DNA of 47,096 bases from a virus (lineage: Duplodnaviria > Heunggongvirae > Uroviricota > Caudoviricetes): IMG/VR virus record IMGVR_UViG_2802429246_000002; one strand, written 5' to 3'. Each line of letters begins with the position of its first letter. Positions within the stretch are counted from its first letter, which is position 1. Both the position numbers and the translations under genes were made by a program. Positions 2,896 to 36,694 of this stretch are shown piece after piece. The notes below the pieces were generated by a model. The model saw nothing but the letters and a program-made list of their open reading frames with translations. It was not told the DNA's origin and searched no databases.

Positions 2896-3300
2896 TCATG
2901 CGTTACCATCGTCTTTTCTCCCCGGAATTAACTCGCGTGGATTATCGGAACGGTGGTAGAGCCATATACCAATACGCACAGCAACAATTGCTGACACGAA
3001 TGCGCCAGCAGAGAAAACAATCCCTTTTTCAAAAGAGTCCTGCGTGATAGTAGGGATCAGGCTGGCTATGCCGATAAGAATTGATGCTGCTGGTTTATAA
3101 AAAAGAAGGCCGCAGAGAAAGCTAAGCATCGACAAGAGTACACGACGACGAATGGGATACTCTACCGCAGAGGTAACAAAAATTACCGCTCCAGCCAAAG
3201 CCCCCAAAGCAACCTCAGGAGGAACTCCTGCTATCACCGCCGCCAGAGAACTCATGCTAAGCCACTGATTTAAAGTTTCACTGGTTAGTTGAGCTGACAT
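2896..3300 (-). CDS. Putative holin (multi-TM, charged C-terminus)
   Basis: About four predicted TM helices and a charged C-terminal tail; directly upstream of endolysin; start taken at ATG 3300 with GGTGGA RBS rather than the track GTG at 3309. Confidence 0.5.
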   Translation of the reverse strand: MSAQLTSETLNQWLSMSSLAAVIAGVPPEVALGALAGAVIFVTSAVEYPIRRRVLLSMLSFLCGLLFYKPAASILIGIASLIPTITQDSFEKGIVFSAGAFVSAIVAVRIGIWLYHRSDNPRELIPGRKDDGNA

Positions 3301-11204: not shown

Positions 11205-14200
11205 CTATTTCATCTGCTCTTCAACTTTATTTAGTAATGGTGATATCGCCCACAGATTCTGAAAAGGTAGCATTTTACGGACAGCGTGGGTTTGCTGGCT
11301 GTCAAATTCTCCGTTAAGTACACCATTTGCAACCGTCGCGGCATCACCGCCAAGATCAAAGGTAGGACCAAGTAAAGCACCAATAGCATTACGACTCTGA
11401 AACCTTGATACCGGAGGCGCACCAAACATCGCGCCAAGACCAAACCTACCGCCGCTTATGTTCTCAACGGTATTCAGCGGCTCAGAGAGCCAGCCAAGCA
11501 TTCCGCCCCGGTCGATCCCCTCTTTCACAAGGTTATTCCAGCTGTAGTCAATATCGCGACCGCTTAACTTCTGTTTCATCATATAGACCATTGAGCCAAG
11601 CGCAATCGTGCCAAGCGCACCAAGATAGAATGCAGCATCGCCCTGCTGGATACCAGATACCAGCACCCTGTTATGCTGTGCGAAGATAAACGTTTTAAAC
11701 TGCGTGATCATCTTCCAGCCTTCTTTACTAAAAAACAGCGGGGTATCACCTACGCCAGGCGTTACAATCACTGAGTCTACATCTTTCAGCACTGCAGACT
11801 GGAAAATCTCTCTAGCGAAACGGTCATCCCACAGATGACTATGCCCGGTTAACAGCCCGTCCATATCCTCTCCGTGCTTCCCGAATTGCTCCCCGATTCG
11901 GCGCAGAACATCTTCATTGATGCCGACCTGTGCCATCTTCCGCATTTCACTTTTGGAGAGCGTGCCACCAGCAGAAACTTTGCGAGCCGCGTCAAGTATC
12001 CTCGACTGCACTATCATCCCGGACCATGATTTAAGTGCGCTGTTCCACTGATTCATCAGCGTCCAGTTACCGAATTTCTGCGTCATCCAGTTCAGACCTC
12101 GCTCAGCGGCGCTTCTCCGGCTATAGGGGTCAGTAAGATCCGCTATAGCCTTTGTACGCGTAGACAGGACATAATCAAGCCCAACGGCCATTTCTCGCAA
12201 ATCCCTGGTTGCAATTTTCACTGAGTCCATATTTTTAAGCATGCTTACCATTGGTCCGAGAGATTTTCTCAGGCCATGCTGCATCATCGGTCGCATCAGA
12301 TCAGTTGCAGCGGAGACAGTCATTCCACCAAGCAAACGGAGGAAGTTAATATTCCTAGCAACTCGCCCGGCACGAACAAAGAAACTGCGTGGATCTTGAG
12401 GTGCACCGTAAGTACCAAGCAGTCGATCACGCATAGCCGTAATATCCCTAATATCAGCCTCCCGTTGCTTCTCAAGAACTGCACGTCGTTTAGGTGTTTT
12501 AGCCTCTTTTATTAGCCGGGTATATTCCTCACTAACCTGACGGATTTGCTCCCCCATATCTTTACGGCCAAACTGCGCAGTCAGCTCAATTTCTGGTGCC
12601 ACCTGCCGGAGATAACTTTCCATGATGTAGTTAACATCTGATTCAAGAAAATCTTCTATACGCTCATCAGGAATAAGCAGCGTTCTGCTTTTAGTGAAAC
12701 CAGCCCGACCAACGAGTCTCTCTGGGATAATATCGGCTGGTACAAGCCCGGAAGGTGCGCCTATTATTTTATTCACGATCTCGTCAGCAGCGTCCTCTGC
12801 TTCCTCTCGGGATAGAGGCTCCATCTGCTTCAGTGCTCGTTCGCGGCTTGCATTCAGCCTTGTGGTTGAATTTGCCCGTTTTTGCAGTCGGCGAAGCTCA
12901 GAACGATATTTCCGTGGATTATCCAGCAACTCCATATGGCGCTGATAGACAGGAAGCTCACTCTTTGCCTGCGCTATATCATCAAGGCGTGTTTTAAGGT
13001 CAGAGCTTTCTTTCATCATTCTTGCCTGAAGTTTTTCTGATGAAGTCTCGGCCAACTCTTTTTCTATTCTTGTAAGACGCGCCTGTGTGTCAGTCTCCTG
13101 AGATATAAGCTTATTTCGTTTATCCAGTTCTTCCATGAGTAGAATTTTTTTACCAGACCATTTCTCCGCTTCAGCGATTTCACTAGCGAGAGCATCAGCG
13201 CGCGGTGCCGATTCCTCTGCAGTTTTTAGCAATGAATTTATCCTTTCAATTCGCTGACCTGCTTTGTCAGCACCTTTGGCACTAATCCCTTGTATCCAGT
13301 TGGCAATTCGCCCTCTGAATTCAGTGCGGTCGGAAAGTATCTTATCGAACTTATAAATGCGGGGAAGATAACTTTTCGCCGTCACGACATCGATATCTTC
13401 AGGAAGGATCCCCAGTTCCTGCATACGGGCTTTTGTGGTCTCGAAAATGGGGCGGATTCTGGCGGCTGCTTGTGAAACCTCAGGAATATCACTCTGATCA
13501 CCACGGCGCATAGCCATGCCAACAGCTTCATTGAAATCAATAAAGTTCATCCTCTTCACGCCGCGGGCGCTAACAGATTTGCTGTACTGCTGGTAAGCAT
13601 CACGAGTAGCTTCCATCTGCTTATAAAGCATGGCGTCGTATTGCTTAATCTTAGTCTCGACTGCTGTAAACGTAGCCAACCCCTCATCATTTTTGGCGAA
13701 GAAATAGTTATTTTCGGCAAGCTGCTGGTTAATCTGACGGGAGACAAGAGATGGTGATTGCGCCAAGCGGCCAGCAGGAGTGACACTCAACGTTTTGTTA
13801 GCAAGTCCAAGTCCAGCGAGCTGTTCCTGATCGAGTGTGGTATTGAAAACCTGAGCTGCACCAATGCTTTGAGGAGAATCCATACCTCGCAAATGATTAC
13901 CTACTGAGTTAACCACTGCCTCGCGCGCGCCAGGTCCAGCAAGTAGCTGTGCACCAGCACCAAGAATCCCACCAACGAGAGCATCAACAACAACGTTCGA
14001 TACGCTCTCCATCGGTGAGCGAGCTTCCTGAGTGGCCTGTAATGCGGCCTCTGAAGCAACACTGCCAGCAGCATTCGCCATGGCAAAACGCCCGGCTGTT
14101 TCTGCAATACGACCGCCACGAACGACAGCGCCGAACGGAATAAACATAGAAATCGCATTGAATGGATCTGCTAATCTCATTGCTACAGAAGAGACTGTAC

Positions 14201-14594
14201 CAGCAAATCCCAAGCCTGAATTGTATTCCATGTCAGCTCTCTGCTGATCGATTCGATGTTTAATTGCCATTGTTTCTTCAGGCGAACCGGAGTTGATAAA
14301 CGAATCTGCAAAATCTTCATAGCCTTTAATATCTGCTGCATCGTTATCAAATGGGTTATATCCTTCAACCCTGTCAAACTGACTGAAAGGAGCACTGGCA
14401 ATAAAGCTACCCAGCGTGTTATCTATACGAAATGCTGCTTGTCTAGACCTTTGAACGCGTTGATCACTGGTAAATGGGTTCACAGCAGAAAGCAAAGAAG
14501 GTGTTTCCATATAGAAATTACTGTCATCAGGTGCTGCTATTTGCTGAATATCCTCGCCAAGCAACTCTTTAGGATCCTGTTCATATATCGGCAT
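11205..14594 (-). CDS. Internal virion / DNA-ejection protein (large, 1129 aa)
   Basis: Size, position after tail tubular genes, coiled-coil-rich sequence; typical of podovirus core/ejection proteins. Confidence 0.6.
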   Translation of the reverse strand: MPIYEQDPKELLGEDIQQIAAPDDSNFYMETPSLLSAVNPFTSDQRVQRSRQAAFRIDNTLGSFIASAPFSQFDRVEGYNPFDNDAADIKGYEDFADSFINSGSPEETMAIKHRIDQQRADMEYNSGLGFAGTVSSVAMRLADPFNAISMFIPFGAVVRGGRIAETAGRFAMANAAGSVASEAALQATQEARSPMESVSNVVVDALVGGILGAGAQLLAGPGAREAVVNSVGNHLRGMDSPQSIGAAQVFNTTLDQEQLAGLGLANKTLSVTPAGRLAQSPSLVSRQINQQLAENNYFFAKNDEGLATFTAVETKIKQYDAMLYKQMEATRDAYQQYSKSVSARGVKRMNFIDFNEAVGMAMRRGDQSDIPEVSQAAARIRPIFETTKARMQELGILPEDIDVVTAKSYLPRIYKFDKILSDRTEFRGRIANWIQGISAKGADKAGQRIERINSLLKTAEESAPRADALASEIAEAEKWSGKKILLMEELDKRNKLISQETDTQARLTRIEKELAETSSEKLQARMMKESSDLKTRLDDIAQAKSELPVYQRHMELLDNPRKYRSELRRLQKRANSTTRLNASRERALKQMEPLSREEAEDAADEIVNKIIGAPSGLVPADIIPERLVGRAGFTKSRTLLIPDERIEDFLESDVNYIMESYLRQVAPEIELTAQFGRKDMGEQIRQVSEEYTRLIKEAKTPKRRAVLEKQREADIRDITAMRDRLLGTYGAPQDPRSFFVRAGRVARNINFLRLLGGMTVSAATDLMRPMMQHGLRKSLGPMVSMLKNMDSVKIATRDLREMAVGLDYVLSTRTKAIADLTDPYSRRSAAERGLNWMTQKFGNWTLMNQWNSALKSWSGMIVQSRILDAARKVSAGGTLSKSEMRKMAQVGINEDVLRRIGEQFGKHGEDMDGLLTGHSHLWDDRFAREIFQSAVLKDVDSVIVTPGVGDTPLFFSKEGWKMITQFKTFIFAQHNRVLVSGIQQGDAAFYLGALGTIALGSMVYMMKQKLSGRDIDYSWNNLVKEGIDRGGMLGWLSEPLNTVENISGGRFGLGAMFGAPPVSRFQSRNAIGALLGPTFDLGGDAATVANGVLNGEFDSQQTHAVRKMLPFQNLWAISPLLNKVEEQMK

Positions 14595-17341
14595 TATTTG
14601 CCCCCTGCGTATATATTGCTCGGAAGGTAATTGGCTGAACCATAACCGAATGGTTTGGTCAGATCTGGAGGAGTATATCCATCTTTATTGCTGAACTGCG
14701 GCAGCGGATTGCCTTCTCTCCGCACTCTAGCCTCATCAACACGCTGTTGCTGGAACTGAATGGTTTGCCTGTACATTGGAGATGTCAGCTGATCCGGCTT
14801 GAAACGAACAGGGAGACCATTTTCTCCAATATAATTTCTCGGTTCTATCGCTCCGTTTGCGTCAGGCTGTAAAACCATAACAGCATAACTCCTATCCCTT
14901 GCCGTAAGGCCATCAGAAACAAGTATTAAGTCCGTATCACTGCGAGGACCGCCAAAGGATTTTGATTTAAGCTCGCGTTTTTCCTGCTCCCACTGCCCCT
15001 GTATCCAGTTACCAGCACCATTATTTACTCCGTACAATGCCTCAGGTGCATACTTCATAACCTCTGCTTTGCCATTAACCGTAGAAACTCCCCAGGTGGT
15101 TCTGATCATGGCATTGGTCATTTTCTCAGCCTGTTCTGCATCGCCACCTGTCTGTACAAAGTTAGCATCGTAAATTGTCTGGTAATCTCGCTGATAGGCC
15201 GCATTTGATTTTCCTGGATCGGTAATATCCGGAGACCACGAACCAAAGGAAGTCAGACTGCTGGCGTTATTTTGTGCAGCAGTTGCCCTCGCCGCGACAT
15301 ATTTTTTGTCTCGCATGGCAGTGGAAAGCATCTGTTTCATTCGGTCATCCTGTTGGAACACCTGGCTGTAAGCCATATCAACAGCCTTATCCTCCGGCAC
15401 GCCAGCGCGGGAATAATCGTAAACCTTGCCGTAAAATGCCATCGTACTTTTATCAAGTGTTGCCGCTGCCGCCGGATTATTATCGAATAACTGACCGTAG
15501 AATTTTGCCATCGGGACAACCAGCGCAGGATCTCTTGATGTTGCTCCACTGTTAAGCATTGTTTTAACCTGAGTTGGTATCATGCCGCTTTTAGTTGTGA
15601 CGGTGACCAGTGTATTGATGCTCTGCGGATCAGATATGGAAAACGAAGGCGCAATATCCTGCGCGAAATAACGGTCTACCGCTGCCTGATTGTTTTTGTC
15701 GTTCGGGTCCAGCGGGAAGTTATTTTGCATTGAAGACACGAACCTGTTTCTTCCCTGCTGAATCTCCCAATCCCTATCCATCTCTTTAAATTTGGCCTGC
15801 ATTTTCTCCCAGCGTTGCTGGTTAGCTGCAAATCCAGGAGCGTTTGGATCCTGTGGACGTAAACGTTCAAGAATGTCTTGTCGTCCTTCTGGAGTGAGGT
15901 CTTTAGCGGCACCAATGACACCTCCATATTGTATCTGCGCCTGCATATCCTTCCACTTCATAGCGCCAATGCGCGGACCATTGGCCCGGATAAAATCGTC
16001 CTCAGAAGGTAACTGCTCAGGTTTCAATCCTTCATCAAGGGCTGAATATGCATCTTTAACTACGGTGCTAAGCTGGTCCGCATACTGCTGGCGGTACTGA
16101 TTTCTCAGCTCATTAGCCTGCCTCAATGCCTGTATTTGCATTTGAGGGCTCATAGCATCAAATGCCGCATTGCCCGTATAACGCTTAGGTGAATCAAGGT
16201 TAGTTAGACCAAGGGCTGCCGAGATACCAGTTTCAAGCTGTTCGGTGCTATAAGGCATACTGCCATTTTCGTGTTTAATAATCCCAGCAAATAAAGCAGC
16301 TAGTGTCTTTGGGTTAGAGATATCAAGCTGATCATTCTCCCCAACACCAAGCTCACCACACAATGCCCTAATATAAGCATCAGTATTATTACCATCACTA
16401 GCCGGAGCATAGCGATTAACAATCTCGCTAACGGTGTCATAGCCTTGACGCTGGTAAGACAACATATTTTTACCCAACGCGCGGATTCCATGCTCAGGGG
16501 TAGCAAACGTTGCAAAACGTCCATCGCTACCGATCTGACCTTCCCACGGGTTAGATTTGCTCGCTTCAATATTACCAGGGTTATTATTACGTAAACCACG
16601 AGCATCCAATGAATTACCATGTGACATTGCACGACTCACACCGTCAAGATCCCCTGGCTCTCCATTAACCTGAAGAAACTCGTTGTATTTTTGAGCGATA
16701 TTTCCTATCCATGCTTGCTGCCCCATTTGTTCCTTGAGCTGAGTTTTCTGCTGAACACGCCACTCATCAGGAAGCCCATGCGCATCAGCGTATTGATCAA
16801 TAGATTCAAATCGCTGCTTGGCTAAATCGACAAATGCTTGGTTATCGCTATATAGCCCCGCAGACTGAGTGACAGCCAATGCATTTCCTGACAAATACGT
16901 TTGATCTTGGAATTGCTGAAACTGCCCAACTTCATATCGACGTGCCTGATTGTAATAAGACTGCATAGACTGCTGGAGTTGAAAGGATAATTTATTCCTT
17001 TCCTCACTTTCAGGAATTGAGCCTAATAATGCCTGAGCCCTTTCCTGCATATTTTTCATAACAGCGTCACTCTGACCAAGAGCGTTTTTACCCTGTTTAG
17101 AAATCAGCCCATTTTCAGGGTTGTTAATCTGGTCATCTGCAAATTGGTTAAATTGCAGTAACGCCTCCTGGGCCATAGCAACATTCGCTTTCTGCCTGGC
17201 TTCACCATATGCCACCGCATACTGATCTGCGACATTCGCCAGCACCTGACCTGCTTGAGGAACATCGAAGGTCTGAAAACCACCGGTTTGCACACCACGA
17301 CTTTGCACCTGGCGTCCGGATGTAGTAGGAACAACAGGCAT
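14594..17341 (-). CDS. Internal virion / DNA-ejection protein (915 aa)
   Basis: Position and size; Gln/Asn-rich N-terminus; conserved-looking block around RNNNPGNIEAS in the N-terminal third. Confidence 0.6.
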   Translation of the reverse strand: MPVVPTTSGRQVQSRGVQTGGFQTFDVPQAGQVLANVADQYAVAYGEARQKANVAMAQEALLQFNQFADDQINNPENGLISKQGKNALGQSDAVMKNMQERAQALLGSIPESEERNKLSFQLQQSMQSYYNQARRYEVGQFQQFQDQTYLSGNALAVTQSAGLYSDNQAFVDLAKQRFESIDQYADAHGLPDEWRVQQKTQLKEQMGQQAWIGNIAQKYNEFLQVNGEPGDLDGVSRAMSHGNSLDARGLRNNNPGNIEASKSNPWEGQIGSDGRFATFATPEHGIRALGKNMLSYQRQGYDTVSEIVNRYAPASDGNNTDAYIRALCGELGVGENDQLDISNPKTLAALFAGIIKHENGSMPYSTEQLETGISAALGLTNLDSPKRYTGNAAFDAMSPQMQIQALRQANELRNQYRQQYADQLSTVVKDAYSALDEGLKPEQLPSEDDFIRANGPRIGAMKWKDMQAQIQYGGVIGAAKDLTPEGRQDILERLRPQDPNAPGFAANQQRWEKMQAKFKEMDRDWEIQQGRNRFVSSMQNNFPLDPNDKNNQAAVDRYFAQDIAPSFSISDPQSINTLVTVTTKSGMIPTQVKTMLNSGATSRDPALVVPMAKFYGQLFDNNPAAAATLDKSTMAFYGKVYDYSRAGVPEDKAVDMAYSQVFQQDDRMKQMLSTAMRDKKYVAARATAAQNNASSLTSFGSWSPDITDPGKSNAAYQRDYQTIYDANFVQTGGDAEQAEKMTNAMIRTTWGVSTVNGKAEVMKYAPEALYGVNNGAGNWIQGQWEQEKRELKSKSFGGPRSDTDLILVSDGLTARDRSYAVMVLQPDANGAIEPRNYIGENGLPVRFKPDQLTSPMYRQTIQFQQQRVDEARVRREGNPLPQFSNKDGYTPPDLTKPFGYGSANYLPSNIYAGGK

Positions 17342-17915: not shown

Positions 17916-18380
17916 TTATTTTCTCTCCATGTGAAATCTGTGGAAATTAAGACCAAGAGCACCATAAGGCGCGGCTTCTTCAAGCCTGAATCCAAGCCAG
18001 TGCAGCCATGCTTTGGCAACATGGTTTCGCTCGTCGACGTAGTTTTCCAGGCGCGGATAAACTGCCAGCATCTGCTGCAATACAGGGCGGCAGTGGCGAA
18101 GAAATGTCTTCTGATATTTTTCAATACGGCTGGTTCCGACCAGCCAGGGCGTACCATTGCCACCGATCATTGACGCCGGAGATACACCAAACATGGTTAC
18201 CAGTTCTCCGTTCGCGAACCCTGACCAGGCCATAGTCGCAGTGCGCAGACCAACGCGCAGCGCATCTTCGGTAGTCATCAGCGATACCGCATACAGTTCG
18301 TCAATATCAGCCTGACGAACATCCGGCAAAATCATCTGAAGATGCTCTTCGGTAGCGGGAATAATTTGAACGTCGATCAT
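17916..18380 (-). CDS. Tail-associated / virion assembly protein (unknown function)
   Basis: 154 aa ORF within the structural operon between tail tubular and core genes. Confidence 0.45.
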   Translation of the reverse strand: MIDVQIIPATEEHLQMILPDVRQADIDELYAVSLMTTEDALRVGLRTATMAWSGFANGELVTMFGVSPASMIGGNGTPWLVGTSRIEKYQKTFLRHCRPVLQQMLAVYPRLENYVDERNHVAKAWLHWLGFRLEEAAPYGALGLNFHRFHMERK

Positions 18381-20851
18381 CAGAATCCCCCAACAGTAAG
18401 GCGAGGAATAACGGCAAGAACAGACAGCGGCAACGGGTCAAGCTGACGGATTTTTACACGTCCGTTTTTGCCCCAGTTACTGTCCAGTTTCACTTCTACT
18501 TTTCCGGTAGCATCATCAACAGGATCATCGTAGAACTCGAATTCACGCTGTGGATATTCGTACCATTTACCGCCAGGCGTAGTCGCCCAGATGCCGCGGC
18601 TGGCATTCACAACCAGAGTAACGGAGGGGATCACCTGTTTTTTGTCCAGCAGCGTTTCCTGTCCGTTAATGTTGATATCCAGTGTTTCGAATTCAGCAGT
18701 TATTGGCAGACCGATGTGCACTACAGCCCCCGGAGATTCCAGCGTGACGGCACCTCCGGAAACAACTTTCTGTGGCTCAACATTCGCATCAGAAAGAATG
18801 TTTACGGTCTGTCCTTCAAGATGAGACAGGCCTCCAAATGTCCGGCGCGCCATCTGCCAGTTCGTGGTGGCCGCATTCCTGAGGGATGGCGGGAGGTTCC
18901 TGTTGGCACGAACCACTACAGCGGTATTGCTGGTTACAGAAATAATGTCGCAACGTAATTCTTTTGACACTTCATCGCCAGTATCAGGATCAGTTCCAGC
19001 ATAAGGGAACTGTAGTTGCGCACCGACATCACTACTGGTGAAGTACGCACCACCAGAAACACTGATTGTATATTCCGCGCGGTAATCCCATTCACCAGAA
19101 CCACCAGTGATGGTCATCGTTCTGTCAGACGTATTTCTTCCATCATAGCTAAGGCCAGAATCAACAAAGAAAGCGTCTTCATCGCTGGTAAATAAACGGC
19201 TGGACAGTCTCTCGATGTATCTCACTGCTTGCCCGTTAACGGTTCGGTTAACGACGAAATACACCGCATCTTCATTGCCTTCGCTGATACTGCATGTGCT
19301 TTCATATTTTCCGGTACTGGACTGTGGTGCCCATGCAAAAACCTGCTGATCACGCAAATAGGTCATCACCAGTAATTTACCGTCATCACGAATGCAGAAG
19401 GCGCTGGAGTAAGGGACAATCGAGAAGCACCAGTCAACAATGCTGTGCTTCTGAAAAAGATGATTGGCAAGGATGGTCAGGTCGTTCCCCTGATAGCCGT
19501 CAACATCGAATGAGTAGGCCAGATCACGGACAACGCTGCCTTTCTCCTGGACGAACAAAGCAATATTCGCCACGGCAATTGGCGGGACGTTGCTTGAGCC
19601 ATTTGATCCCTGAGAGCTGAATGCAAATGATGATGGGGTTAACACTTTGTTCTGGTCGCCGGTGATGACGTACTCACCTCCGGAAGTCAGCGCCACCAGC
19701 GAACCAACATCAATCAGGTGACGGATCTCATTAACCTGACGCCCGGCATAGGTGTAGATAATTCTGTCGTCATCCTGCGTAGGATTGCTTTTGCCAAAAT
19801 CCTTATAATCCCCAGTACGGCTGGCCCAGATAGTCTGAGGGAACGCAGTCGATGCGGCGAAGTAAAGACGTTGTTGATAATAAACAACAGTGCCAGGATA
19901 ACCATTAACACTGTTCCAGGCATATTTAGCCCATTTATAGCTGGCATTATCCTCGCCAACGACCTGCGAAGGGATATAGGAAATCACCTCAGCAGTTGCA
20001 GTAGTGCCATTTACAGCAGTTATACGGGCAATGCCAAAACCACTGTGCAGATACTCCCACTCAATGCCAGTATCATCATCACCGGATCCGCCCCAGCCAT
20101 CCCATGATGTGCCTTCTGTATGCGAAGGGCGCAAAGTGCCTGTTTTGCCTGCTGTAACGGCGCGATAGTAGTTACTGTCTGCACGGCGAATATCACCAAT
20201 CGACGTACTCTTACTGGTTTCCCATACCGGCACTGAATCCACTGCAGGCTGTTCCAGATAGAACAATTTGCCTACCTGCTCCGCGCCAAAAATAGAGGCG
20301 CTTGCCGTTAACGTAATTGTCCCGGTGCTGGCGCTGGCATAAACCGTCACTGACTCGTCAATATTGATATCTTCAAATGGCCCGTTCTTCGTTACCACAT
20401 CAACCAGTTGCCAGTTGTCATGAGCATAGCGGCGCAACTCTTTCGGCGGGTATGCCGGATGAACCAGCGTAAGCACGTCGGCGCTTTGCGTGAATTTAAT
20501 TCGGAACAGATCGGCTTCAGTATATGGCGTGGCAATTTCATAAATAACATTGCTGCTGTTCAGCACCAACGCACCATCTTTGATAACGCGCATGTACTGG
20601 TGTCCGAACTCCAGAGCATAGGTCTGAACAGTCGAGAACTGGAACGGGATCAGGCGGCATTTCCGATTTGGGTATTTGGCGGCACCGACAAAACGCGTAC
20701 CCGGTCGATTCTCAACGCCGCCATACTGCCGCACGATAAAGTTATCGCACTTGCGCAAAGCCACCTGGTACTTCGCCATGTCGATACGACCGTACAACGA
20801 CGGTCCAATCTCACCACCGGCAAAGCTGGGCTGGATCCAACTGATAGCCAT
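18380..20851 (-). CDS. Tail tubular protein B-like (podovirus nozzle protein)
   Basis: 823 aa; N-terminus MAISWIQPSFAGGEIGPSLYGRID typical of podoviral tail tube B-type proteins; follows a tail tubular A-like gene. Confidence 0.6.
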   Translation of the reverse strand: MAISWIQPSFAGGEIGPSLYGRIDMAKYQVALRKCDNFIVRQYGGVENRPGTRFVGAAKYPNRKCRLIPFQFSTVQTYALEFGHQYMRVIKDGALVLNSSNVIYEIATPYTEADLFRIKFTQSADVLTLVHPAYPPKELRRYAHDNWQLVDVVTKNGPFEDINIDESVTVYASASTGTITLTASASIFGAEQVGKLFYLEQPAVDSVPVWETSKSTSIGDIRRADSNYYRAVTAGKTGTLRPSHTEGTSWDGWGGSGDDDTGIEWEYLHSGFGIARITAVNGTTATAEVISYIPSQVVGEDNASYKWAKYAWNSVNGYPGTVVYYQQRLYFAASTAFPQTIWASRTGDYKDFGKSNPTQDDDRIIYTYAGRQVNEIRHLIDVGSLVALTSGGEYVITGDQNKVLTPSSFAFSSQGSNGSSNVPPIAVANIALFVQEKGSVVRDLAYSFDVDGYQGNDLTILANHLFQKHSIVDWCFSIVPYSSAFCIRDDGKLLVMTYLRDQQVFAWAPQSSTGKYESTCSISEGNEDAVYFVVNRTVNGQAVRYIERLSSRLFTSDEDAFFVDSGLSYDGRNTSDRTMTITGGSGEWDYRAEYTISVSGGAYFTSSDVGAQLQFPYAGTDPDTGDEVSKELRCDIISVTSNTAVVVRANRNLPPSLRNAATTNWQMARRTFGGLSHLEGQTVNILSDANVEPQKVVSGGAVTLESPGAVVHIGLPITAEFETLDININGQETLLDKKQVIPSVTLVVNASRGIWATTPGGKWYEYPQREFEFYDDPVDDATGKVEVKLDSNWGKNGRVKIRQLDPLPLSVLAVIPRLTVGGF

Positions 20852-24363: not shown

Positions 24364-24660
24364 TCACTCCTGTTCACTGGCCTCTTTGGCCATCTTCAAA
24401 TACTGTTCAGGGCAATGCGCCATAACGCGCTGAAACAGTTCCAGCGCCAGATTGCGTTGCCCCTCATTAAATGCCATTGCCATAGCGTCCATCGGTGAGA
24501 TAGCGGAAAACACACGGCCTTTCTCCAGCACCGACCAGACAACGCGACGCCCCTGTTCACTGCTCATGACAAAGCGAATGTCATCAATTTCACGCTGCGC
24601 CATGTCACGTTGCTTACGGGCGTTTTCTTCTTTCAGTTGATCGTCTTCGTAATCTGTCAT
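24364..24660 (-). CDS. Hypothetical head morphogenesis protein
   Basis: 98 aa ORF overlapping portal stop and scaffold start. Confidence 0.4.
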   Translation of the reverse strand: MTDYEDDQLKEENARKQRDMAQREIDDIRFVMSSEQGRRVVWSVLEKGRVFSAISPMDAMAMAFNEGQRNLALELFQRVMAHCPEQYLKMAKEASEQE

Positions 24661-26336
24661 TGTGATTGCCCACCCTGACCACTAACTGCATTCGCCATAG
24701 CTGACAAAACACTCGGATCCGAAGTTTTAGCTTCGCTTAGCGTCTTGGCACCCTGTGCCGCCGCCATCCCCATCGCCATCATTTGTTGCTGCTGTTGCTG
24801 CTGTGCCCGTTGCTGGCGAGCCTGCTCAACCTGTTCCTGCGGAACAATGACGGTTGGAGACACTCCGGACATATCAGCGAATGCATCGATCGCCTGATCA
24901 ACGTTGAGTTTGTCGAGAGCTTCTGGTTTCGCTTGCGCAAGTTGACCAATGAAGTTGACCGTAGACGCCAGACTGGACAAGCCGATAGACTTCTGCGCCT
25001 GAGCCATGACGGAAATGTATTCGACCTTCAGGGGCATACCTTCCATCGCGTCAGGCGGTGGCGGCAGCATGTTTTTACGCACCATCATCGAGAAAGCGCG
25101 GTCAATGAGAGGATTAAGACATTCGTCGTTCAGACGCTCCAGAACCGGCCCCAACATCAGAAGTTTTTCTTCTTTCATTTCGATCACCGCTTCAACAGGC
25201 ATCGAGCGGGTATTGATGTTCTGCAACATCATGAACAGATCGACAAAGTAGGCGCTGTTAATGATTTGACGAGTGTCCTGAATGTCTGCCACCAAATCTG
25301 CTGTACTGGGGTTAACCAGATAAGCAGGCCTGAAGCCATCCTGACCAGTAATCTGATCGATATACGTGATGTCGCCAGGAAGAAGGGAGGCGCGCTGATT
25401 CTTGAGGGAAGTCGGAGCAACCATCGGCGGATTGGTGGCTTTATCAATCAACTGCGACTTGCGCTTCTGGAGAAGCTGCAATGCCTTAACAGGTCCAAGC
25501 GCCAGCATACCCGGGCATGATGATCCATAAACATCTTCGCCGTTAACTTCCCAGCGCGGAGCCATAATTGGAAACTCATCGAATCCGGACTCACGCAACA
25601 ACTTGTCGTTATCGCCACCAACCTCGTAATAAACCGATTTGAATGGCTTGTTCTTGCTATCCAGCTTCGATGTATCGCGGTCAATGTTCGGGTAAACCGA
25701 ATGCATCACTTCAATCCACTTCTCGTAGGTGCCGCTTTCCCACATGCTTTTTACGGATTCGCTGACGTTATTTAGCCCGAACTCCTGAACAAGCTGACGA
25801 ACAGTCATAGAGAACTTACGAAAACATGTGTCCACACTGCCACGAGGTGAGTTAGCCAGGTAGTAACTACCTATCGGGAATGGCATTGTGCGAATTATGT
25901 CCTCGTCATCCTCCAGCACCGCCATTGCACCAGTGCTGTATGTGCCGAGGCTTCCGTATAACTGCGGAAGAGACTGGTAGAGATTCGACTTATTGAACAT
26001 ATCGTTCATGCGGTTCTGCACCGCCTCAAGCCACAACTTAACAGGGCCATAATCCATCATTTCAGGATCTGGCGTAGCCAGGCGAAACCACGGACGCGCG
26101 GGACTTGTGATGCCTGACATCATGCCGCTGGCGAGAGTGCGCGCCGCCATAGTCCCGGTCGAATCAATAATGCGTGTATTGCGTCGATCGTTACGGTTGA
26201 CCTCAGAAGTCAGAAAGCGGGAACCACGCGGGTTGATGTAATCACTCAACTCGCGCCAGTGCGGCTCGAACGACTGACGCTCGCTTTCAAGTTGTGCGAA
26301 CTGTTTGTTCAATCGCTCTTTAGTTGTTTCCGCCAT
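24657..26336 (-). CDS. Portal protein
   Basis: 559 aa; position after terminase module; Gln-rich C-terminal tail. Confidence 0.75.
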   Translation of the reverse strand: MAETTKERLNKQFAQLESERQSFEPHWRELSDYINPRGSRFLTSEVNRNDRRNTRIIDSTGTMAARTLASGMMSGITSPARPWFRLATPDPEMMDYGPVKLWLEAVQNRMNDMFNKSNLYQSLPQLYGSLGTYSTGAMAVLEDDEDIIRTMPFPIGSYYLANSPRGSVDTCFRKFSMTVRQLVQEFGLNNVSESVKSMWESGTYEKWIEVMHSVYPNIDRDTSKLDSKNKPFKSVYYEVGGDNDKLLRESGFDEFPIMAPRWEVNGEDVYGSSCPGMLALGPVKALQLLQKRKSQLIDKATNPPMVAPTSLKNQRASLLPGDITYIDQITGQDGFRPAYLVNPSTADLVADIQDTRQIINSAYFVDLFMMLQNINTRSMPVEAVIEMKEEKLLMLGPVLERLNDECLNPLIDRAFSMMVRKNMLPPPPDAMEGMPLKVEYISVMAQAQKSIGLSSLASTVNFIGQLAQAKPEALDKLNVDQAIDAFADMSGVSPTVIVPQEQVEQARQQRAQQQQQQQMMAMGMAAAQGAKTLSEAKTSDPSVLSAMANAVSGQGGQSQ

Positions 26337-26350
26337 TTCAATGACTCCGG

Positions 26351-26557
26351 TTACTGACCAAGCAGCGTTTTACCGCTGGTATTAGCGGTTGATGTGTCGC
26401 CCTGAGAACCGGTAAGCAGCGTAGAACTACGACCAGCAGCAGCGCGACGGCGACGAGTTTCTTCGTCGCGGGCATCAACAACGGCGGCATCCTGCTCCTG
26501 TGGTGCGGCCTGAACTTCTGGTGTTGCAGGCACTGATGGTGAGCTACCCATGCACAT
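26351..26557 (-). CDS. Small hypothetical protein upstream of portal (low-complexity)
   Basis: 68 aa ORF ending 15 bp before portal start; Ala/Arg-rich; coding status uncertain. Confidence 0.25.
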   Translation of the reverse strand: MCMGSSPSVPATPEVQAAPQEQDAAVVDARDEETRRRRAAAGRSSTLLTGSQGDTSTANTSGKTLLGQ

Positions 26558-26646
26558 ATCAATGACTCCGTACGCAATTAAATTATTACCAATTTAACCA
26601 CATATGATTTATTTATCGTAGATAGTTGACATTTAACGCACGAATT

Positions 26647-26663
26647 ATTACCTTTCAGGTAAC
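26647..26663. promoter_or_regulatory. 17-bp inverted repeat attacct-ttc-aggtaac (site D)
   Basis: Same motif family; upstream of the GC-rich structured region and tRNA. Confidence 0.5.
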
Positions 26664-26984
26664 CAAAGAGTTCATTCCGGTTACTAACCTGACTGGCTTG
26701 TCGTTAAATTGAACAGGTGGAGTGAGCTTTTATTTTGAGCAGTACGGCGTATGGCACATGCGCCGATAGCGGTCTGGATACGTTTAAGGGGCACCCTCCC
26801 TTGCTCGGGCAAACGAACCAGGTAGCCGGAATGTGCAAGTCGAGCGGTTTTATTCCGCGCACGGGGATTCACCATCCCGGCGATTCGGTGTGACACCTCG
26901 GAAGAGACGAGGGTACAACGATGAGGGCATTTATGGAGCCGCGACAAAGTGTGGTGCCTTAACAGGCTAAGTGCTCTCAGCGTT

Positions 26985-27061
26985 GTGGCATTAGCTCAGC
27001 TGGACAGAGCAACCGCCTTCTAAGCGGTTGGTCGCAGGTTCGAATCCTGCATGCCACGCCA
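26985..27061 (+). tRNA. tRNA-Arg (anticodon UCU), phage-encoded
   Basis: Manual fold: acceptor GTGGCAT/ATGCCAC, D-stem GCTC/GAGC, anticodon stem ACCGC/GCGGT with loop CTTCTAA, T-stem GCAGG/CCTGC with loop TTCGAAT, discriminator G, encoded CCA; sequence differs from E. coli argU. Confidence 0.85.
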
Positions 27062-27104
27062 GAATCACGCCTAAGGACCGTGATGCCAGAAGTTCCATGG
27101 GCTT

Positions 27105-27146
27105 GGCGGTGATGGTTTCCCTTGAAGGACTATCACCGCCCTTTTT
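27105..27146 (+). terminator. Rho-independent terminator downstream of tRNA (stem ggcggtgat/atcaccgcc + CTTTTT)
   Basis: 9-bp stem followed by T-run on plus strand. Confidence 0.55.
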
Positions 27147-27224
27147 ACAGCAGGACGCCATTGCGATGACTTCATGCTGTAAACCAGTACAGCCACGGAA
27201 GGCATAACTCATTGCTTCCAGTTC

Positions 27225-27248
27225 GCCCGGTTCGCCGGGCATTTTTTT
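27225..27248 (+). terminator. Rho-independent terminator (gcccgg-ttcg-ccgggc + T7)
   Basis: Perfect 6-bp GC stem with tetraloop followed by TTTTTTT. Confidence 0.65.
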
Positions 27249-27263
27249 GCCTGGTGACTGAAC

Positions 27264-27280
27264 GTTACCTTGAAGGTAAG
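27264..27280. promoter_or_regulatory. 17-bp inverted repeat gttacct-tga-aggtaag (site E)
   Basis: Core TTACCT-N3-AGGTAA intact; 32 bp upstream of the ATG at 27312. Confidence 0.5.
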
Positions 27281-27311
27281 ATAACAAAAACATTTAACAT
27301 CTGGTTTAGAC

Positions 27312-27917
27312 ATGTTCGAGCAATTTAAAGAGATCGCATCATCGGCTATTAGCACAACGTCAGAGAGAGTCCGCAACCCAGCACTTGGGGCATTTGTGTT
27401 TTCGTGGTGTTCTTTTAACTGGAATCCACTATTATTTTTATTCTTCAGTAAGTCAGGAATTGAAGAAAAAATAAATTATATATCTTCCCATAGTGATGCG
27501 TACCACTCACTCTTATATCCAGCTTTATGTGCATTCGCGCTGTGTGTAATAGTTCCATGGTTTAACAATATAGTGGTGATGTTTCAAAAAATTCCACTAC
27601 AGAACATCGATAACTTCAAACACAACAAAAGCCTCAGGGATGTTAAAAACGCCATAGAATTGCGTAAGCTTGAGGCACAAAGGGACATTACATACGACAG
27701 AGTTAAGGTTGAGTTTGAGTCTGAGATTCAATTCTATAAAAATGATTTAATCAAGCACCAAGAGTCTTTGAATTCTTTTTTGCAGGAAAGAGATTCCCTT
27801 ATTGAAAAAATAATGGCGCTTGAAAAAGAACTTGCAGAAGAAAAAATAAAATCCAATACCAGAATTGCAAATAAGTTTAACTCAAGGAACAATCGCAACA
27901 CAGACAATGCTGCTTAA
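27312..27917 (+). CDS. Cargo membrane protein: two N-terminal TM helices + C-terminal coiled coil (unknown function)
   Basis: 201 aa; about 35% GC; opposite strand to flanking terminase and portal genes; preceded by operator-like site. Confidence 0.65.
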   Translation: MFEQFKEIASSAISTTSERVRNPALGAFVFSWCSFNWNPLLFLFFSKSGIEEKINYISSHSDAYHSLLYPALCAFALCVIVPWFNNIVVMFQKIPLQNIDNFKHNKSLRDVKNAIELRKLEAQRDITYDRVKVEFESEIQFYKNDLIKHQESLNSFLQERDSLIEKIMALEKELAEEKIKSNTRIANKFNSRNNRNTDNAA

Positions 27918-27921
27918 AACT

Positions 27922-29391
27922 TTATGAAAACGGATCGTACTCAGTAATAGCTTTCCCCTGCTGCTGCCGTGGGTCATTAGTTTTCTTGGCTACCGGGAAG
28001 GCGAACGTTAGCAGCAGCGCATCACCTTTACCCGGCGAACGCCCAAGTCGCTCTTTGATATCTTCCTTCGGTTCGATAACGATTTTACCGTCCACGCGAA
28101 CTTTGTACTCTGCCGTCGACAGGTCGTCCGCTGTTTCCTGGTCATCCAGCATCCCGCCCAGCCTCAGCCATGTCTTGCATGAGTTGAACATCTCCCCACG
28201 CTTGTTGAGCATCTGCGGGTCAGTAGACGCGCCACCGAACGGAACAAGTTGCCATGTACGACCCCAGCCGTCACCGATTGACTTCAGACCAGTTCCGTAA
28301 CCGAAGTCGATGAACACTGCGTCAGCCTGGTACTGGTCTTCAAAGTCAGCGATACGCTTCGCCATTATCAGATCGTCAGTGGTCTTGTTGCCAGTCCACA
28401 GCACCTTACTGTGCAGCCCCTGCCGCAGGTATATCACAGCGTCATCAACGCCGGAGTATGCAGGGTCAACGCCGATTATCACCGGAGCATGTGCCACCTG
28501 CGCAGCAGTTACCACCCGTTTCATTGCCTCGTCAGTAAGACCGGTAGGGATAAACTGCAATTCAGATGCATCAGGAAATATGCCGCGCACACGGATTTTA
28601 ACGAAGTCGCTGTCTTCCCCGTAGTCATCAACCCATTTCTGTAATTGCTGCTTGTTAGTACCTTCCACCGTCCGGCTGTCAATCTGTGCAGTTTTCCAGC
28701 GGTGTTTATATTTGCGGAAACATTCGCGGAAACGCCCGGTGTTACGTGTCGGGTTTCCGAACGCCACCCAGATAATCTCAGTGTCTTCGTCCGTAAGCGC
28801 ACCCTCAGCAACTTCCCACACCAGATCCGCAATGTTCGACGCTTCATCGAATACCACGATGATGCGTTTGCGCTCATTGTGTAATCCGGCGAATGCCTCA
28901 GTGTTGTGCTCAGACCAGGGGATTGCGTCAGCTCGCCACCGCTTGTCGTGCCCAGGGTCATTGCTGTACATCGCGGTAGCGGTACAGGTAAACCAATCTT
29001 TCGTGATAGCAAGGTTCGACCACTTGATAATTTCCGGCCAGGTCTTCGTTCGTAGCTGGTTGTCGGTGTTGGCGGTCACCACGACCTTACAATCCTCGCA
29101 AGTGGACATGCCCCAGTTGATCAGCATTGAGATGAATGCTGATTTACCAATACCGTGACCAGAAGCACGTGCCAGCATAAGCGGCTGATAGCGCGTCTCT
29201 GGATTCTGCAGATGATCACGTATCTCTCGGAACGCATCGGCCTGCCACTGACGTGGACCGGTGGCATGTGCCAGTTCAGTCCCCTCTTCCCCCCACGGGA
29301 ACGCATAGAGGGCATAGCCAAGTGGATCGTGAGTGAACCCTGCAATATCCTCGATTAACTGCTCTTCAGGAGATAACGCTGTATCTGTCAC
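27922..29391 (-). CDS. Terminase large subunit
   Basis: 489 aa; ATPase region with GHGIGKS and downstream acidic motif VVFDEAS, C-terminal nuclease-like region; adjacent small subunit. Confidence 0.85.
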   Translation of the reverse strand: MTDTALSPEEQLIEDIAGFTHDPLGYALYAFPWGEEGTELAHATGPRQWQADAFREIRDHLQNPETRYQPLMLARASGHGIGKSAFISMLINWGMSTCEDCKVVVTANTDNQLRTKTWPEIIKWSNLAITKDWFTCTATAMYSNDPGHDKRWRADAIPWSEHNTEAFAGLHNERKRIIVVFDEASNIADLVWEVAEGALTDEDTEIIWVAFGNPTRNTGRFRECFRKYKHRWKTAQIDSRTVEGTNKQQLQKWVDDYGEDSDFVKIRVRGIFPDASELQFIPTGLTDEAMKRVVTAAQVAHAPVIIGVDPAYSGVDDAVIYLRQGLHSKVLWTGNKTTDDLIMAKRIADFEDQYQADAVFIDFGYGTGLKSIGDGWGRTWQLVPFGGASTDPQMLNKRGEMFNSCKTWLRLGGMLDDQETADDLSTAEYKVRVDGKIVIEPKEDIKERLGRSPGKGDALLLTFAFPVAKKTNDPRQQQGKAITEYDPFS

Positions 29392-29984
29392 TGATTACCA
29401 TCCTGACGTTCTTTGAGTCGCTTCCTGGCTGCTGCTATGCGATCAGCAATTGTCACATTCACATTAACATCCAGACGTTCTTTGAACGCGTTGACATCAA
29501 CATGCTTACCAATCAGCTCAAGGTTCTTCACCTTGTCAGGCCATTTAATTTTTTTGAGGATTGTCTCTATCGAATCCTCGTTCATGTTCATGATGGTCGA
29601 TGACAGATCAAAGCCACTAAGCGTAGTACGCCAGATTTTCGGCCACTCACGGATTGGTTTAAGGCTCCCATCGTCGTTGAGGATGTCGATCACGTCCATC
29701 TGGTCGATCTCCACCAGGCGCATGAGAACGTAATCAGCACTGACGCGCATTCGTTTGTTGCGCTCCTCCATCAACTCGGCAATCCGTTTCTGAATGCGTT
29801 CATCGCGCATCATGACACTGGCTTTAACTGCCGCTGTATTTGGGGAGAATCCTGCGTTAATCGCAGCCTGAGTCTGGTTTTCAGGCGTTTTGATGTATGA
29901 CTGGCAATAAGCCTCCTGCATTGCTGTGAGCGGCTTAAATTGCGTTGATTTGCGTTTATAGGTTTTAGGTTCAGCAGGCATCAT
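29388..29984 (-). CDS. Terminase small subunit
   Basis: Segment AMQEAYCQSYIKTPENQTQAAINAGFSPNTA typical of small terminase N-terminal HTH; start chosen at MMPAEPK (the track ORF extends to 30062). Confidence 0.65.
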   Translation of the reverse strand: MMPAEPKTYKRKSTQFKPLTAMQEAYCQSYIKTPENQTQAAINAGFSPNTAAVKASVMMRDERIQKRIAELMEERNKRMRVSADYVLMRLVEIDQMDVIDILNDDGSLKPIREWPKIWRTTLSGFDLSSTIMNMNEDSIETILKKIKWPDKVKNLELIGKHVDVNAFKERLDVNVNVTIADRIAAARKRLKERQDGNQ

Positions 29985-30094
29985 AACCACCGTGGTAATT
30001 GTTACCGTTGTGGTAATAGTACCATGCAAAATAAAGCCGCCATAGTTGGCGGCAGTATTCAAAACCCATCAAATTCATCATGCATAATCTACTC

Positions 30095-35589: not shown

Positions 35590-35820
35590 TCATGAGTAGA
35601 AGAAGTATGCCAGTTCTGCTTTTGAGCGCAGCCATTGTCTTGTTTTACAGGCTTTAAAAAGCCCATTCATCAATACCTTACCTGGCATTTTGCGCTTACC
35701 TGTTAAGTGAGTCTGGATATAGTGACTCGTCGTTCCGGCTTCCTGTGCGAAGGCTTCACGCTCATCCGGAGTAAGTGCAAGCCAGTGCTTTTTGAAATCG
35801 AAATGTCCGTTATCGCTCAT
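35590..35820 (-). CDS. Cro/YdaS-like HTH regulator
   Basis: 76 aa; putative HTH AFAQEAGTTSHYIQTHLTGKRKMP; divergent from repressor gene; first gene of replication-side operon. Confidence 0.6.
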   Translation of the reverse strand: MSDNGHFDFKKHWLALTPDEREAFAQEAGTTSHYIQTHLTGKRKMPGKVLMNGLFKACKTRQWLRSKAELAYFFYS

Positions 35821-35974: not shown

Positions 35975-36559
35975 ATGAAAAGTATCCAGGACGTCCGCAG
36001 GCAAAATCTCAACGACTTGATCGACCGTGAATTCAATGGTGTTCAGACGCGGATGGCAGAAAAACTTGGAACTCAGGCAAATCTGGTAAACCGCTGGGCT
36101 CTTGGCAAGAAGGTTATCGGCGACCAGGTTGCGCGAAAAATTGAAGCTGCCGCCAATAAACCCCGTAACTGGCTTGATATCGATCGCTCGCTTTCTCAGG
36201 AAGGTTTTCAGCCTGTCGGCCCAAGCGACATTGGTCAGCTGGCGGCTCACAACCTGGAACGCTGGATGAGCGAAAGCCGCGACCTTTCAACACAGGGAAA
36301 ACTTCACCGCGCATCCGGCGTCGCCCAGGTAACAATCAGCCGCCTGTTAAACAATGAGGTCAGCGTTTCCATTTCCACCCTGGAGAATGTTGCATCCGCA
36401 TTCGGGCGTCACGGCTATGAATTACTGATTCACCCGCACGACCCTGCGACCATCAACTATGACCGCTCGCGCTACGCATTGTTACCCGAAACCGAGAAAG
36501 CAAAGATCGAAAGTTACATTGAATTTGTCATCAACCAGAACGAAAAAAATAAACAATAA
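35975..36559 (+). CDS. Prophage repressor (CI-like), two HTH-like regions, no obvious LexA/S24-type autocleavage domain
   Basis: 194 aa; N-terminal XRE-type HTH (VQTRMAEKLGTQANLVNRW) and second HTH-like segment (GVAQVTISRLLNNEVSVSISTLENVA); divergent to cro-like gene. Confidence 0.65.
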   Translation: MKSIQDVRRQNLNDLIDREFNGVQTRMAEKLGTQANLVNRWALGKKVIGDQVARKIEAAANKPRNWLDIDRSLSQEGFQPVGPSDIGQLAAHNLERWMSESRDLSTQGKLHRASGVAQVTISRLLNNEVSVSISTLENVASAFGRHGYELLIHPHDPATINYDRSRYALLPETEKAKIESYIEFVINQNEKNKQ

Positions 36560-36632: not shown

Positions 36633-36677
36633 TTTTTTAGCTCATATCTATTGACATCAAACCAAATACGCATAATC

Positions 36678-36694
36678 ATTACCCCAACGGTAAC
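36678..36694. promoter_or_regulatory. Inverted repeat attacc-ccaac-ggtaac (site H2)
   Basis: 6-bp arms ATTACC/GGTAAC with 5-bp spacer; 19 bp upstream of ATG at 36713. Confidence 0.45.

Follow-up and report, generated by a model that had tools for sequence, protein, structure and literature searches.

The described systems that come closest to the gene considered here are small membrane proteins of phages and prophages, together with two defence units of E. coli. SieB of P22 and lambda (PF14163), which acts by abortive exclusion, is a solitary protein of about 190 amino acids (aa) with N-terminal hydrophobic segments, encoded on the opposite strand and from its own promoter; P22 SieA, HK97 gp15 and T4 Imm are small accessory phage proteins of the inner membrane that block genome entry; RexB is a prophage membrane protein that has been proposed to depolarise the cell on infection; and DS-13 (WP_001022716.1) and DS-43 (WP_001057122.1, with a Csx28-like fold) combine an N-terminal membrane anchor with an all-helical cytoplasmic part. 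In the features of placement, accessory nature or membrane anchoring just listed, these proteins resemble the product of a gene carried by the virus record IMGVR_UViG_2802429246_000002 of IMG/VR, the whole 47,096 nucleotides (nt) of which are referred to below as the window. This gene, the cargo gene, is a coding sequence (CDS) of 201 aa with an ATG start at 27312..27917 on the plus strand, supported by a list of open reading frames (ORFs), an AlphaFold2 model, hydropathy and a match to phrog_4780, and it lies between the genes for the terminase and the portal protein.

We report that the cargo gene is carried by an accessory cassette (a “moron”) that is open to exchange and lies in a hot spot between a phage tRNA and the gene for the large terminase subunit (TerL), that it is a real gene under purifying selection, as identical copies and selected homologues attest, and that in its family a conserved membrane module is joined to a fast-diversifying stalk. 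We give nearly an even chance to the proposal, the likeliest of those considered, that its product is an anti-phage exclusion or abortive-infection membrane protein. As a find the gene is not surprising, but it makes a sound candidate for experimental work.

An exchangeable slot between the phage tRNA and the terminase gene

The window is a phiV10/epsilon15-like podovirus prophage of E. coli (genus Uetakevirus), integrated beside guaA. A preliminary description had pointed out in it an ORF of low G+C content (GC), a tRNA, two terminators and two operator-like sites, all of which are present where it placed them, in a gap between the terminase and portal genes that it put at about 1.6 kb and that measures 1585 bp. 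Its interpretation of that gap nevertheless has to be revised. The separation of terminase and portal, which it treated as an anomaly, is the norm for the genus, and the cargo gene was not inserted together with a tRNA, as it had supposed: the tRNA, both terminators and a 430-nt spacer belong to the backbone and are found, at 98-99% identity, in phiV10-type phages with different cargo. They form, together with the gp3 gene, a conserved block (26300-27248) that is 98-99% identical in phiV10, the O157 typing phages 9 and 10, vB_EcoP_ZX5, TL-2011b and others, and can still be recognised in SPN1S-like phages of Salmonella and in Klebsiella phages. The tRNA and the separation of terminase from portal are features of the phage group.

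That the gene itself is cargo, in contrast, is borne out. Homology to phiV10 and TL-2011b is broken from 27248 to 27992, and unrelated plus-strand genes occupy that slot in both phages. The exchangeable cassette defined by this comparison (27249..27991) comprises a predicted promoter, the cargo CDS and the final ~23 codons of TerL; it is delimited by the homology to the loci L002 and L003, which extends up to 27248 and is regained from 27992 on, a point within the 3' end of the TerL gene, and against the allele L031 the borders lie at 27297 and 27928. The final ~23 residues of TerL (window 27925-27991) differ from those of phiV10 and TL-2011b, whereas the remainder of the protein is 97-99% identical. 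A recombination border of the slot thus falls within the terminase gene, from which we conclude that the C-terminal tail of TerL tolerates replacement. GC is 0.35-0.38 across 27300-27899 and 0.36 over the cargo CDS, as against 0.51-0.56 in both flanks, and the cargo and TerL genes are convergent, with their stop codons 4 nt apart.

A comparison of this junction in related phages, which the preliminary description had proposed, shows that the cargo gene is not universal there and that phiV10 and TL-2011b have alternative occupants, namely p03 in phiV10 (plus strand; Pfam PF13876, Phage_gp49_66, at 6.3e-35) and gp23 in TL-2011b (plus strand; phrog_3163). Both share with the cargo gene their strand and their position between the tRNA terminators and TerL, but they encode small soluble proteins unrelated to its product and are without its predicted, palindrome-bearing promoter. 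The allele of the window is found in only one of 50,697 phage records, Escherichia phage EC.W1-9, and 1 of 118 phage records holds it. In a set of 5,426 complete genomes of E. coli, some part of a query spanning 27200-27960 is matched by 450, and only 25 of these roughly 450 genomes, which have the left flank in common, carry this allele; copies 99-100% identical to the cargo gene are known from these 25 genomes and from four IMG/VR contigs. Other cargos in the same genomes, counted by DNA similarity only, are L031-type alleles (18 genomes), L021-type alleles (5) and TL-2011b gp23 (11), and DNA similar to phiV10 p03 occurs in 243, some of it possibly outside the slot.

About 64 of 80 IMG/VR loci have a member of the cargo family in exactly this Uetakevirus slot, the alleles being about 40% identical; many of these alleles are flanked by TerL and portal genes 97-100% identical to those of the window, and the Klebsiella types have more divergent flanks. 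At two Uetakevirus loci the alleles are truncated, to 62 aa (L052, 6001-) and to 100 aa (L076, 6001-), and the slot therefore also houses decaying copies.

A conserved membrane module and a variable stalk

The predicted layout of the cargo protein is an amphipathic helix (residues 2-19), a membrane hairpin (about 24-46 and 66-91) and a long helix running to residue 200. AlphaFold2, supplied with an alignment of 68 sequences, returned a model with a predicted local distance difference test score (pLDDT) of 91.7, confident to residue ~190, in which helices span 2-19, 23-35, 37-45 and 50-60 and an unbroken helix spans 63-200. A 281-aa member from Pantoea (pLDDT 82.9) is modelled on the same plan, with a helix at 83-249, a disordered tail and no globular domain. 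Of the two transmembrane (TM) helices proposed in the preliminary description, the second (66-91) is clear, with a Kyte-Doolittle 19-residue maximum of 2.1, whereas the first (24-46) is marginal only; the coiled coil of ~100 aa that it proposed likewise stands in part, in that a continuous long helix is predicted but its heptad pattern over residues 96-190 is only modest. The helix at 96-200 contains neither Pro nor Gly, heptads are most pronounced in it at about 126-174, and the long helix probably oligomerises as a coiled-coil stalk. Over 68 members the N-terminal flank has a net charge of +1.5, the loop one of -0.7 and the part following the second TM helix one of +1.1; by the positive-inside rule, this pattern argues for an N-in/C-in arrangement with the long helix in the cytoplasm. 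We thus infer a two-helix hairpin with N-in/C-in topology in the inner membrane. Near-invariant residues are R19, P23, G26, W32, N36, W37, S46, P70 and P82.

The two halves of the protein have evolved differently. Among the IMG/VR alleles, the ratio of nonsynonymous to synonymous substitution rates (dN/dS) lies at 0.03-0.17 for the first 95 residues and at 0.08-0.58 for the stalk that makes up the rest, and identity to the allele of the window is 43-52% in the N-terminal domain, compared with 15-31% in the stalk. In several pairs of alleles the synonymous rate (dS) is itself very unequal between the halves (L004 versus L012, 0.036 in the N-terminal domain and 0.233 in the stalk), which indicates mosaic recombination.

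An exhaustive search returned at least 1489 cluster representatives (clustered at 50% identity) at E<=1e-3, of which the weakest may in part be coiled-coil noise, and 169 at E<=1e-10. Nearly every one of the matches listed begins no later than about residue 25 of the query, and lengths of 250-340 aa are typical. Close homologues are few: proteins 99% identical in E. coli, 88-93% in metagenomes and Klebsiella michiganensis (203 aa) and 72% in Kluyvera (218 aa). At 201 aa, the copy in the window is shorter than any other of the 68 members aligned, whose median is 286 aa; the idea that a longer gene was cut down recently was considered and rejected, the short form being a stable subfamily.

The preliminary description could place the protein in no family, and profile and structure searches have equally failed to find a named one. 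It belongs to phrog_4780 of PHROGs (1e-51), a group of unknown function. Scans of the cargo protein and the 68 members against Pfam, NCBIfam and PADLOC gave nothing beyond coiled-coil noise; with Pfam the cargo protein has no match at E<=0.1, and in PADLOC-DB 2.0.0 its only match is CARF_HEPN (E=0.0014, over the stalk), with family members matching only LmuB, JetC and similar SMC-type coiled-coil models. A sequence-profile search of the PDB recovered myosin and other coiled coils only, and structure searches gave generic long helices and no relative in fold. A scan of genome contigs gave 54 pattern matches, none of which was confirmed. Named members (in Citrobacter, Enterobacter, Klebsiella and Pantoea) are all annotated “hypothetical protein”, and a literature search by accession, PHROG identifier and keywords found no characterisation of the family.

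Outside the Uetakevirus slot, the remaining IMG/VR loci are mostly lambdoid; there the family gene lies after the replication genes and, wherever nin genes have been mapped, ahead of these. In prophages it is usually encoded on the other strand than the genes around it, as is seen in the annotated lambdoid prophages and in a Pantoea prophage, where it is found beside int-xis. Two inoviruses, vB_VipaK and 10N.261.55.E6_PE001, have a family member in their accessory region, and on Klebsiella IncF plasmids the gene adjoins a DUF1778/GNAT toxin-antitoxin pair and is often cut by IS1. In all these settings it is solitary and without a conserved partner. At the plasmid loci (L094 5001-5309 and L095 5001-5864) the family member lies directly downstream of the DUF1778 antitoxin and GNAT toxin genes; the plasmid copy is intact (287 aa) in pkle02 and IS1-cut in pFF1076_1, and several further Klebsiella plasmids match the first ~95 residues only, which suggests the same truncation.

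Six of the lambdoid loci bear on the origin of the cassette. There the family gene is followed by a fragment of the C-terminal end of a Uetakevirus TerL, which begins at residue 342, 344, 404, 414 or 440 and ends at 488-489 (L005 4794-4949, L007 5032-5289, L055 6742-7158, L065 6804-7217, L068 6795-7028 and L084 4095-4352). Judging from these fragments 3' of the lambdoid copies, illegitimate recombination evidently carried the cassette out of a Uetakevirus with a stub of the terminase gene attached.

The predicted promoter, its palindrome and the neighbouring genes

A sigma-70 promoter is predicted upstream of the cargo gene (27255..27283, plus strand), with a -35 hexamer GTGACT (27255-27260), a 17-nt spacer and a -10 hexamer TAAGAT (27278-27283). 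The hexamers score 8 of 12, and a stricter consensus scan missed this promoter; the layout TGAC..N17..TAnAAT recurs upstream of most family alleles, however, with a perfect TATAAT in several. Within its spacer, and overlapping the -10 hexamer, lies the operator-like palindrome TTACCTTGAAGGTAA (27265..27279). The second operator-like site, TTACCTTTCAGGTAA (26648..26662), stands upstream of the gp3-portal operon, at a position kept in the Uetakevirus loci of both E. coli and Klebsiella. These two sites are not due to chance, since their motif, TTACC-N5-GGTAA, occurs 17 times in the window (allowing one mismatch or none) against 0.81 expected; phiV10 has 11 occurrences against about 1. In the window the motif is found at 3162, 6693, 7813, 7906, 8952, 26648, 27265, 29984, 30002, 33556, 33618, 35520, 35857, 35905, 36617, 36679 and 41761.

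Nearly all of these sites fall in regulatory gaps, and the 11 sites of phiV10 are at matching places. They lie between the divergent cro-like and repressor genes, flanking the promoters of both, on both sides of an early-left promoter (TTGACA-17-CATAAT, 36651-36679), and upstream of TerS (the small terminase subunit), gp3-portal, the tailspike, a Bro-N antirepressor and int. In phiV10 the motif also lies ~40 nt upstream of oac, an O-acetyltransferase gene annotated in the phiV10 record as acetylating the host O-antigen and acting in superinfection immunity. On this distribution we take the palindrome, with moderate confidence, to be the operator of CI/Cro-type regulators of the phage, and expression of the cargo gene is probably wired into the repressor/Cro circuit. 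Reading one shared promoter geometry at all 17 sites gave no clear pattern, and no description of the 15-bp palindrome was found in the literature searched. Most of the Uetakevirus alleles examined have kept the left arm, TTACC, unchanged, whereas it reads CTACC or worse in the Klebsiella type and in L077 and has been altered in several of the lambdoid copies; in this small sample, conservation of the arm hints that the palindrome is functional in its native phage. A candidate operator placed over the -10 hexamer suggests that the gene is repressed in the lysogen. If oac is expressed in lysogens, however, the palindrome does not preclude such expression.

As to the genes around the cassette, TerL (27922..29391, minus strand) is identified by 97-99% identity to the TerL of phiV10-type phages and by the annotation of EC.W1-9, TerS (29388-30062, minus strand) by Pfam Terminase_2 at 1.4e-29, and the portal protein (24657..26336, minus strand) by Pfam PF12236 (Head-tail_con) at 1.6e-187. 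Within the portal-terminase gap, and missing from the preliminary description, sits a conserved 68-aa gene equivalent to gp3 of epsilon15 (26351..26557, minus strand; phrog_831 at 2.4e-36, and the annotation of phiV10p06). The 430-nt stretch between it and the tRNA (26558-26984) is without a credible ORF and 98-99% conserved among phiV10-type phages; a TTGACA (26626-26631) in it adjoins the palindrome at 26648, and divergent promoters, one serving the tRNA and one the gp3-portal operon, may be located in this stretch.

The tRNA-Arg(UCU) of the backbone (26985..27061, plus strand) was recognised by ARAGORN (anticodon tct) and by the Rfam tRNA model (71.7 bits), Rfam finding nothing besides it over 26300-28100, and a tRNA-Arg is annotated in typing phages 9 and 10, phiv142-3 and SPN9TCW. 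On its 3' side, within the conserved block, follows a terminator-like hairpin with a 14-bp stem (27105..27140, plus strand). A second such hairpin, GCCCGGTTCGCCGGGC (27225..27240, plus strand; GCCCGG/CCGGGC, then a T-run), is the final backbone element before the cassette and is kept upstream of differing cargo genes. No convincing terminator was found for the cargo gene. Antisense across the tRNA and both hairpins runs a 100-aa ORF (26991-27293, minus strand), the equivalent of PhiV10p04 (phrog_4647) and an annotated protein in several phage records; because of that placement it is probably not a gene. The codon AGA reaches 19.9 per 1000 codons in the cargo gene, the maximum of the prophage, and AGA and AGG together make up 70% of its Arg codons, compared with 0-7% in head and terminase genes. 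AGA stands at 6-11 per 1000 codons in the tail and ejection genes (3847-6588, 11205-17341 and 18380-20851) and is absent from head, terminase and host genes. The phage tRNA-Arg(UCU) thus corresponds to what the tail genes and this cargo gene demand.

Elsewhere in the window, the repressor (35975-36559), an HTH protein of 194 aa, is 100% identical to phiV10p40, the cro-like protein is encoded at 35593-35820, and a lysis cassette of holin, endolysin and Rz genes (1507-2909, with Rz at 1507-1986) was located by similarity to phiV10 p28-p30. The tailspike (6094-6588) shares with phiV10 p25 only its N-terminal ~160 residues, at 68% identity, and across the whole window no homologue of oac (phiV10 p26) was found. 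These two observations point to a prophage with a different receptor specificity and without the known conversion gene of phiV10.

Readings of function and comparison with known systems

If the cargo protein is indeed an exclusion or abortive-infection protein, it would protect its carrier against other phages in one of these two ways. The conserved hairpin would act on the membrane, keeping the genome of the phage from entering or making the membrane permeable, and the variable stalk would confer specificity or sense a component of the incoming phage. The gene would be transcribed from its own sigma-70-type promoter, and the overlapping palindrome would tie its expression to the repressor/Cro circuit of the phage. 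DefensePredictor has independently listed WP_024946521.1, which is the RefSeq entry for the product of a copy 99.9% identical to the cargo gene, as a “Predicted novel defense gene” with a mean log-odds of 4.36 (range 0.83-6.89), from an E. coli strain of a panel of 69, mostly ECOR (Table S5 of Science 2026, PMC13092281). In that study the strict cut-off was 4, and 45% of 94 cloned units were validated; the best match of WP_024946521.1 to a known defence protein is LmuB, at 12% coverage (PMC13092281).

Several points weigh against this proposal. The score of WP_024946521.1 is barely above the cut-off, the predictor makes use of low GC and gene context, which are common to any moron, and the protein does not appear in the tables of cloned or validated units (PMC13092281). 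The literature search found no functional test of any family member, and homology to known defence, exclusion or abortive-infection (Abi) proteins was not detected, PADLOC giving noise and hhalign probabilities below 3%. The topology is itself inferred, residues 24-46 being marginally hydrophobic (Kyte-Doolittle 1.3; family mean 1.48), and the heptad pattern over 96-190 is modest, with a hydrophobic fraction at the a and d positions of 0.647 against 0.568 +/- 0.047 in shuffled sequences, a value reached by 30 of 500 shuffles. Furthermore, the palindrome overlaps the -10 hexamer, where binding of the repressor would silence the gene in the lysogen, an ill fit for a defence that the lysogen is meant to express, and the copy in the window is the shortest of the members aligned.

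The overlap with the -10 hexamer can perceivably be read in another way, namely that the gene serves the phage in its lytic programme and that a CI-like repressor keeps it off until the phage is induced or infects. Its product might in that case exclude a second phage during lytic growth, as do Imm and Sp of T4, tether replication or assembly to the membrane, as does p16.7 of phi29, or modulate the envelope. This is consistent with a palindrome that occupies the spacer and -10 hexamer of the predicted cargo promoter, that also flanks the cro-like/repressor and early-left promoters and precedes TerS, gp3-portal, the tailspike, the antirepressor and int, and whose left arm is intact in most Uetakevirus alleles and altered in several lambdoid copies. 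That the repressor binds this motif is only putative, however, and oac, the annotated conversion gene of phiV10, has the same motif ~40 nt upstream. Moreover, close relatives of the phage can do without the cargo gene or have another in its place, late transcription runs antisense through it, its stop codon lies only 4 nt from that of TerL, and the family is present in inoviruses and on plasmids, which are without a lytic programme. All in all, we consider a lytic role unlikely. Members in non-lytic inoviruses and on plasmids argue against a function in lysis, packaging or the virion as a whole, and in particular a packaging or virion component working with terminase and portal, which is suggested by position only, is barely conceivable for a predicted integral membrane protein encoded on the opposite strand, absent from phiV10, TL-2011b, ZX5 and most sequenced relatives and with homologues in lambdoid early regions as well as in inoviruses and on plasmids.

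Low GC, a predicted promoter of its own, placement on the opposite strand, a predicted membrane location and slots typical of conversion genes, beside the integrase and in the nin region, would equally suit lysogenic conversion with a benefit to the host unrelated to phages, for example in envelope stress, colonisation or another membrane process. Nevertheless, alleles about 40% identical between near-identical flanks, together with a fast-evolving mosaic stalk, fit an arms race better, and no enzymatic or ligand-binding domain was found, so that this explanation appears improbable to us. We judge it very improbable that the gene is a decaying or selfish remnant, be it a truncated copy without function or a membrane toxin kept by addiction. 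The shortness of the window copy among the 68 aligned members and the truncated alleles elsewhere (L052, L076 and the IS1-cut plasmid copies) would accord with decay. The short form is, however, a stable subfamily, whose copies from E. coli, Klebsiella michiganensis and metagenomes have 201-203 aa and are 88-99% identical (in Kluyvera, 218 aa at 72%), residues are conserved along the full length, the AlphaFold2 model is confident to ~190, and no partner antitoxin ORF fits in the cassette.

Returning to the proposal of an anti-phage protein, it is conceivable, though tentatively and with the doubtful side prevailing, that all these elements belong together. The cargo gene would then stand as the prototype of a new and widespread family of immunity determinants that mobile elements carry as single genes, in which a conserved hairpin carries a hypervariable cytoplasmic coiled-coil “antenna” of 16-35 nm. 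The Uetakevirus tRNA-TerL slot would be both the hot spot of its diversification and, given the 3' stub of TerL kept by lambdoid copies, the source of its export. Expression would be gated by the operator of the resident phage, making the protein an exclusion or suicide device that is switched by the prophage circuit and is not constitutive.

Were defence or exclusion to be confirmed, it would add a single-protein membrane effector common in prophages of Enterobacterales, inoviruses and plasmids. Dozens of ~40%-identical alleles between near-identical flanks amount to a natural experiment, in which swaps of the stalk could map specificity. The terminase-portal gap of phiV10-like phages consists of a conserved regulatory and tRNA module and one exchangeable slot, and the 15-bp palindrome marks many regulatory gaps of these phages and of their morons.

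Among known systems, the lysis proteins were considered and set aside. Class II holins have 65-95 aa and reside in the lysis cassette, whereas the cargo protein has 201 aa, is encoded 25 kb from that cassette and has no holin match in Pfam; and an i-spanin is incompatible with two hydrophobic helices, a predicted cytoplasmic C-terminus, no embedded or adjacent lipoprotein ORF and a phage that has its own Rz. By hhalign there is no relationship to SieB of lambda (2.4% probability) or P22 (0.3%), to P22 SieA (0.7%) or to lambda RexB (0.3%), and DS-13B (0.4%) and DS-43 (0.6%) are not homologous either; this profile comparison covered SieB, SieA, RexB, DS-13B and DS-43, HK97 gp15 and T4 Imm being likened to the cargo protein by concept only. 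RexB differs in having four TM helices and in its need for RexA, whereas the cargo protein has two hydrophobic helices and is encoded by a single gene, with no partner of the rexA type beside it. DS-13 is a two-gene unit, and both DS-13 and DS-43 are experimentally validated systems of the DefensePredictor study, in which the cargo protein was flagged only as a predicted defence protein. SieB, for all its likeness in size, strand and N-terminal hydrophobic segments and to the promoter predicted for the cargo gene, is without a long single-helix stalk. Compared with proteins of the SieA type, the bulk of the cargo protein is a predicted cytoplasmic helix, not obviously suited to blocking a periplasmic channel; the block to genome entry exerted by SieA, gp15 and Imm is nonetheless a mechanism that its conserved hairpin could share.

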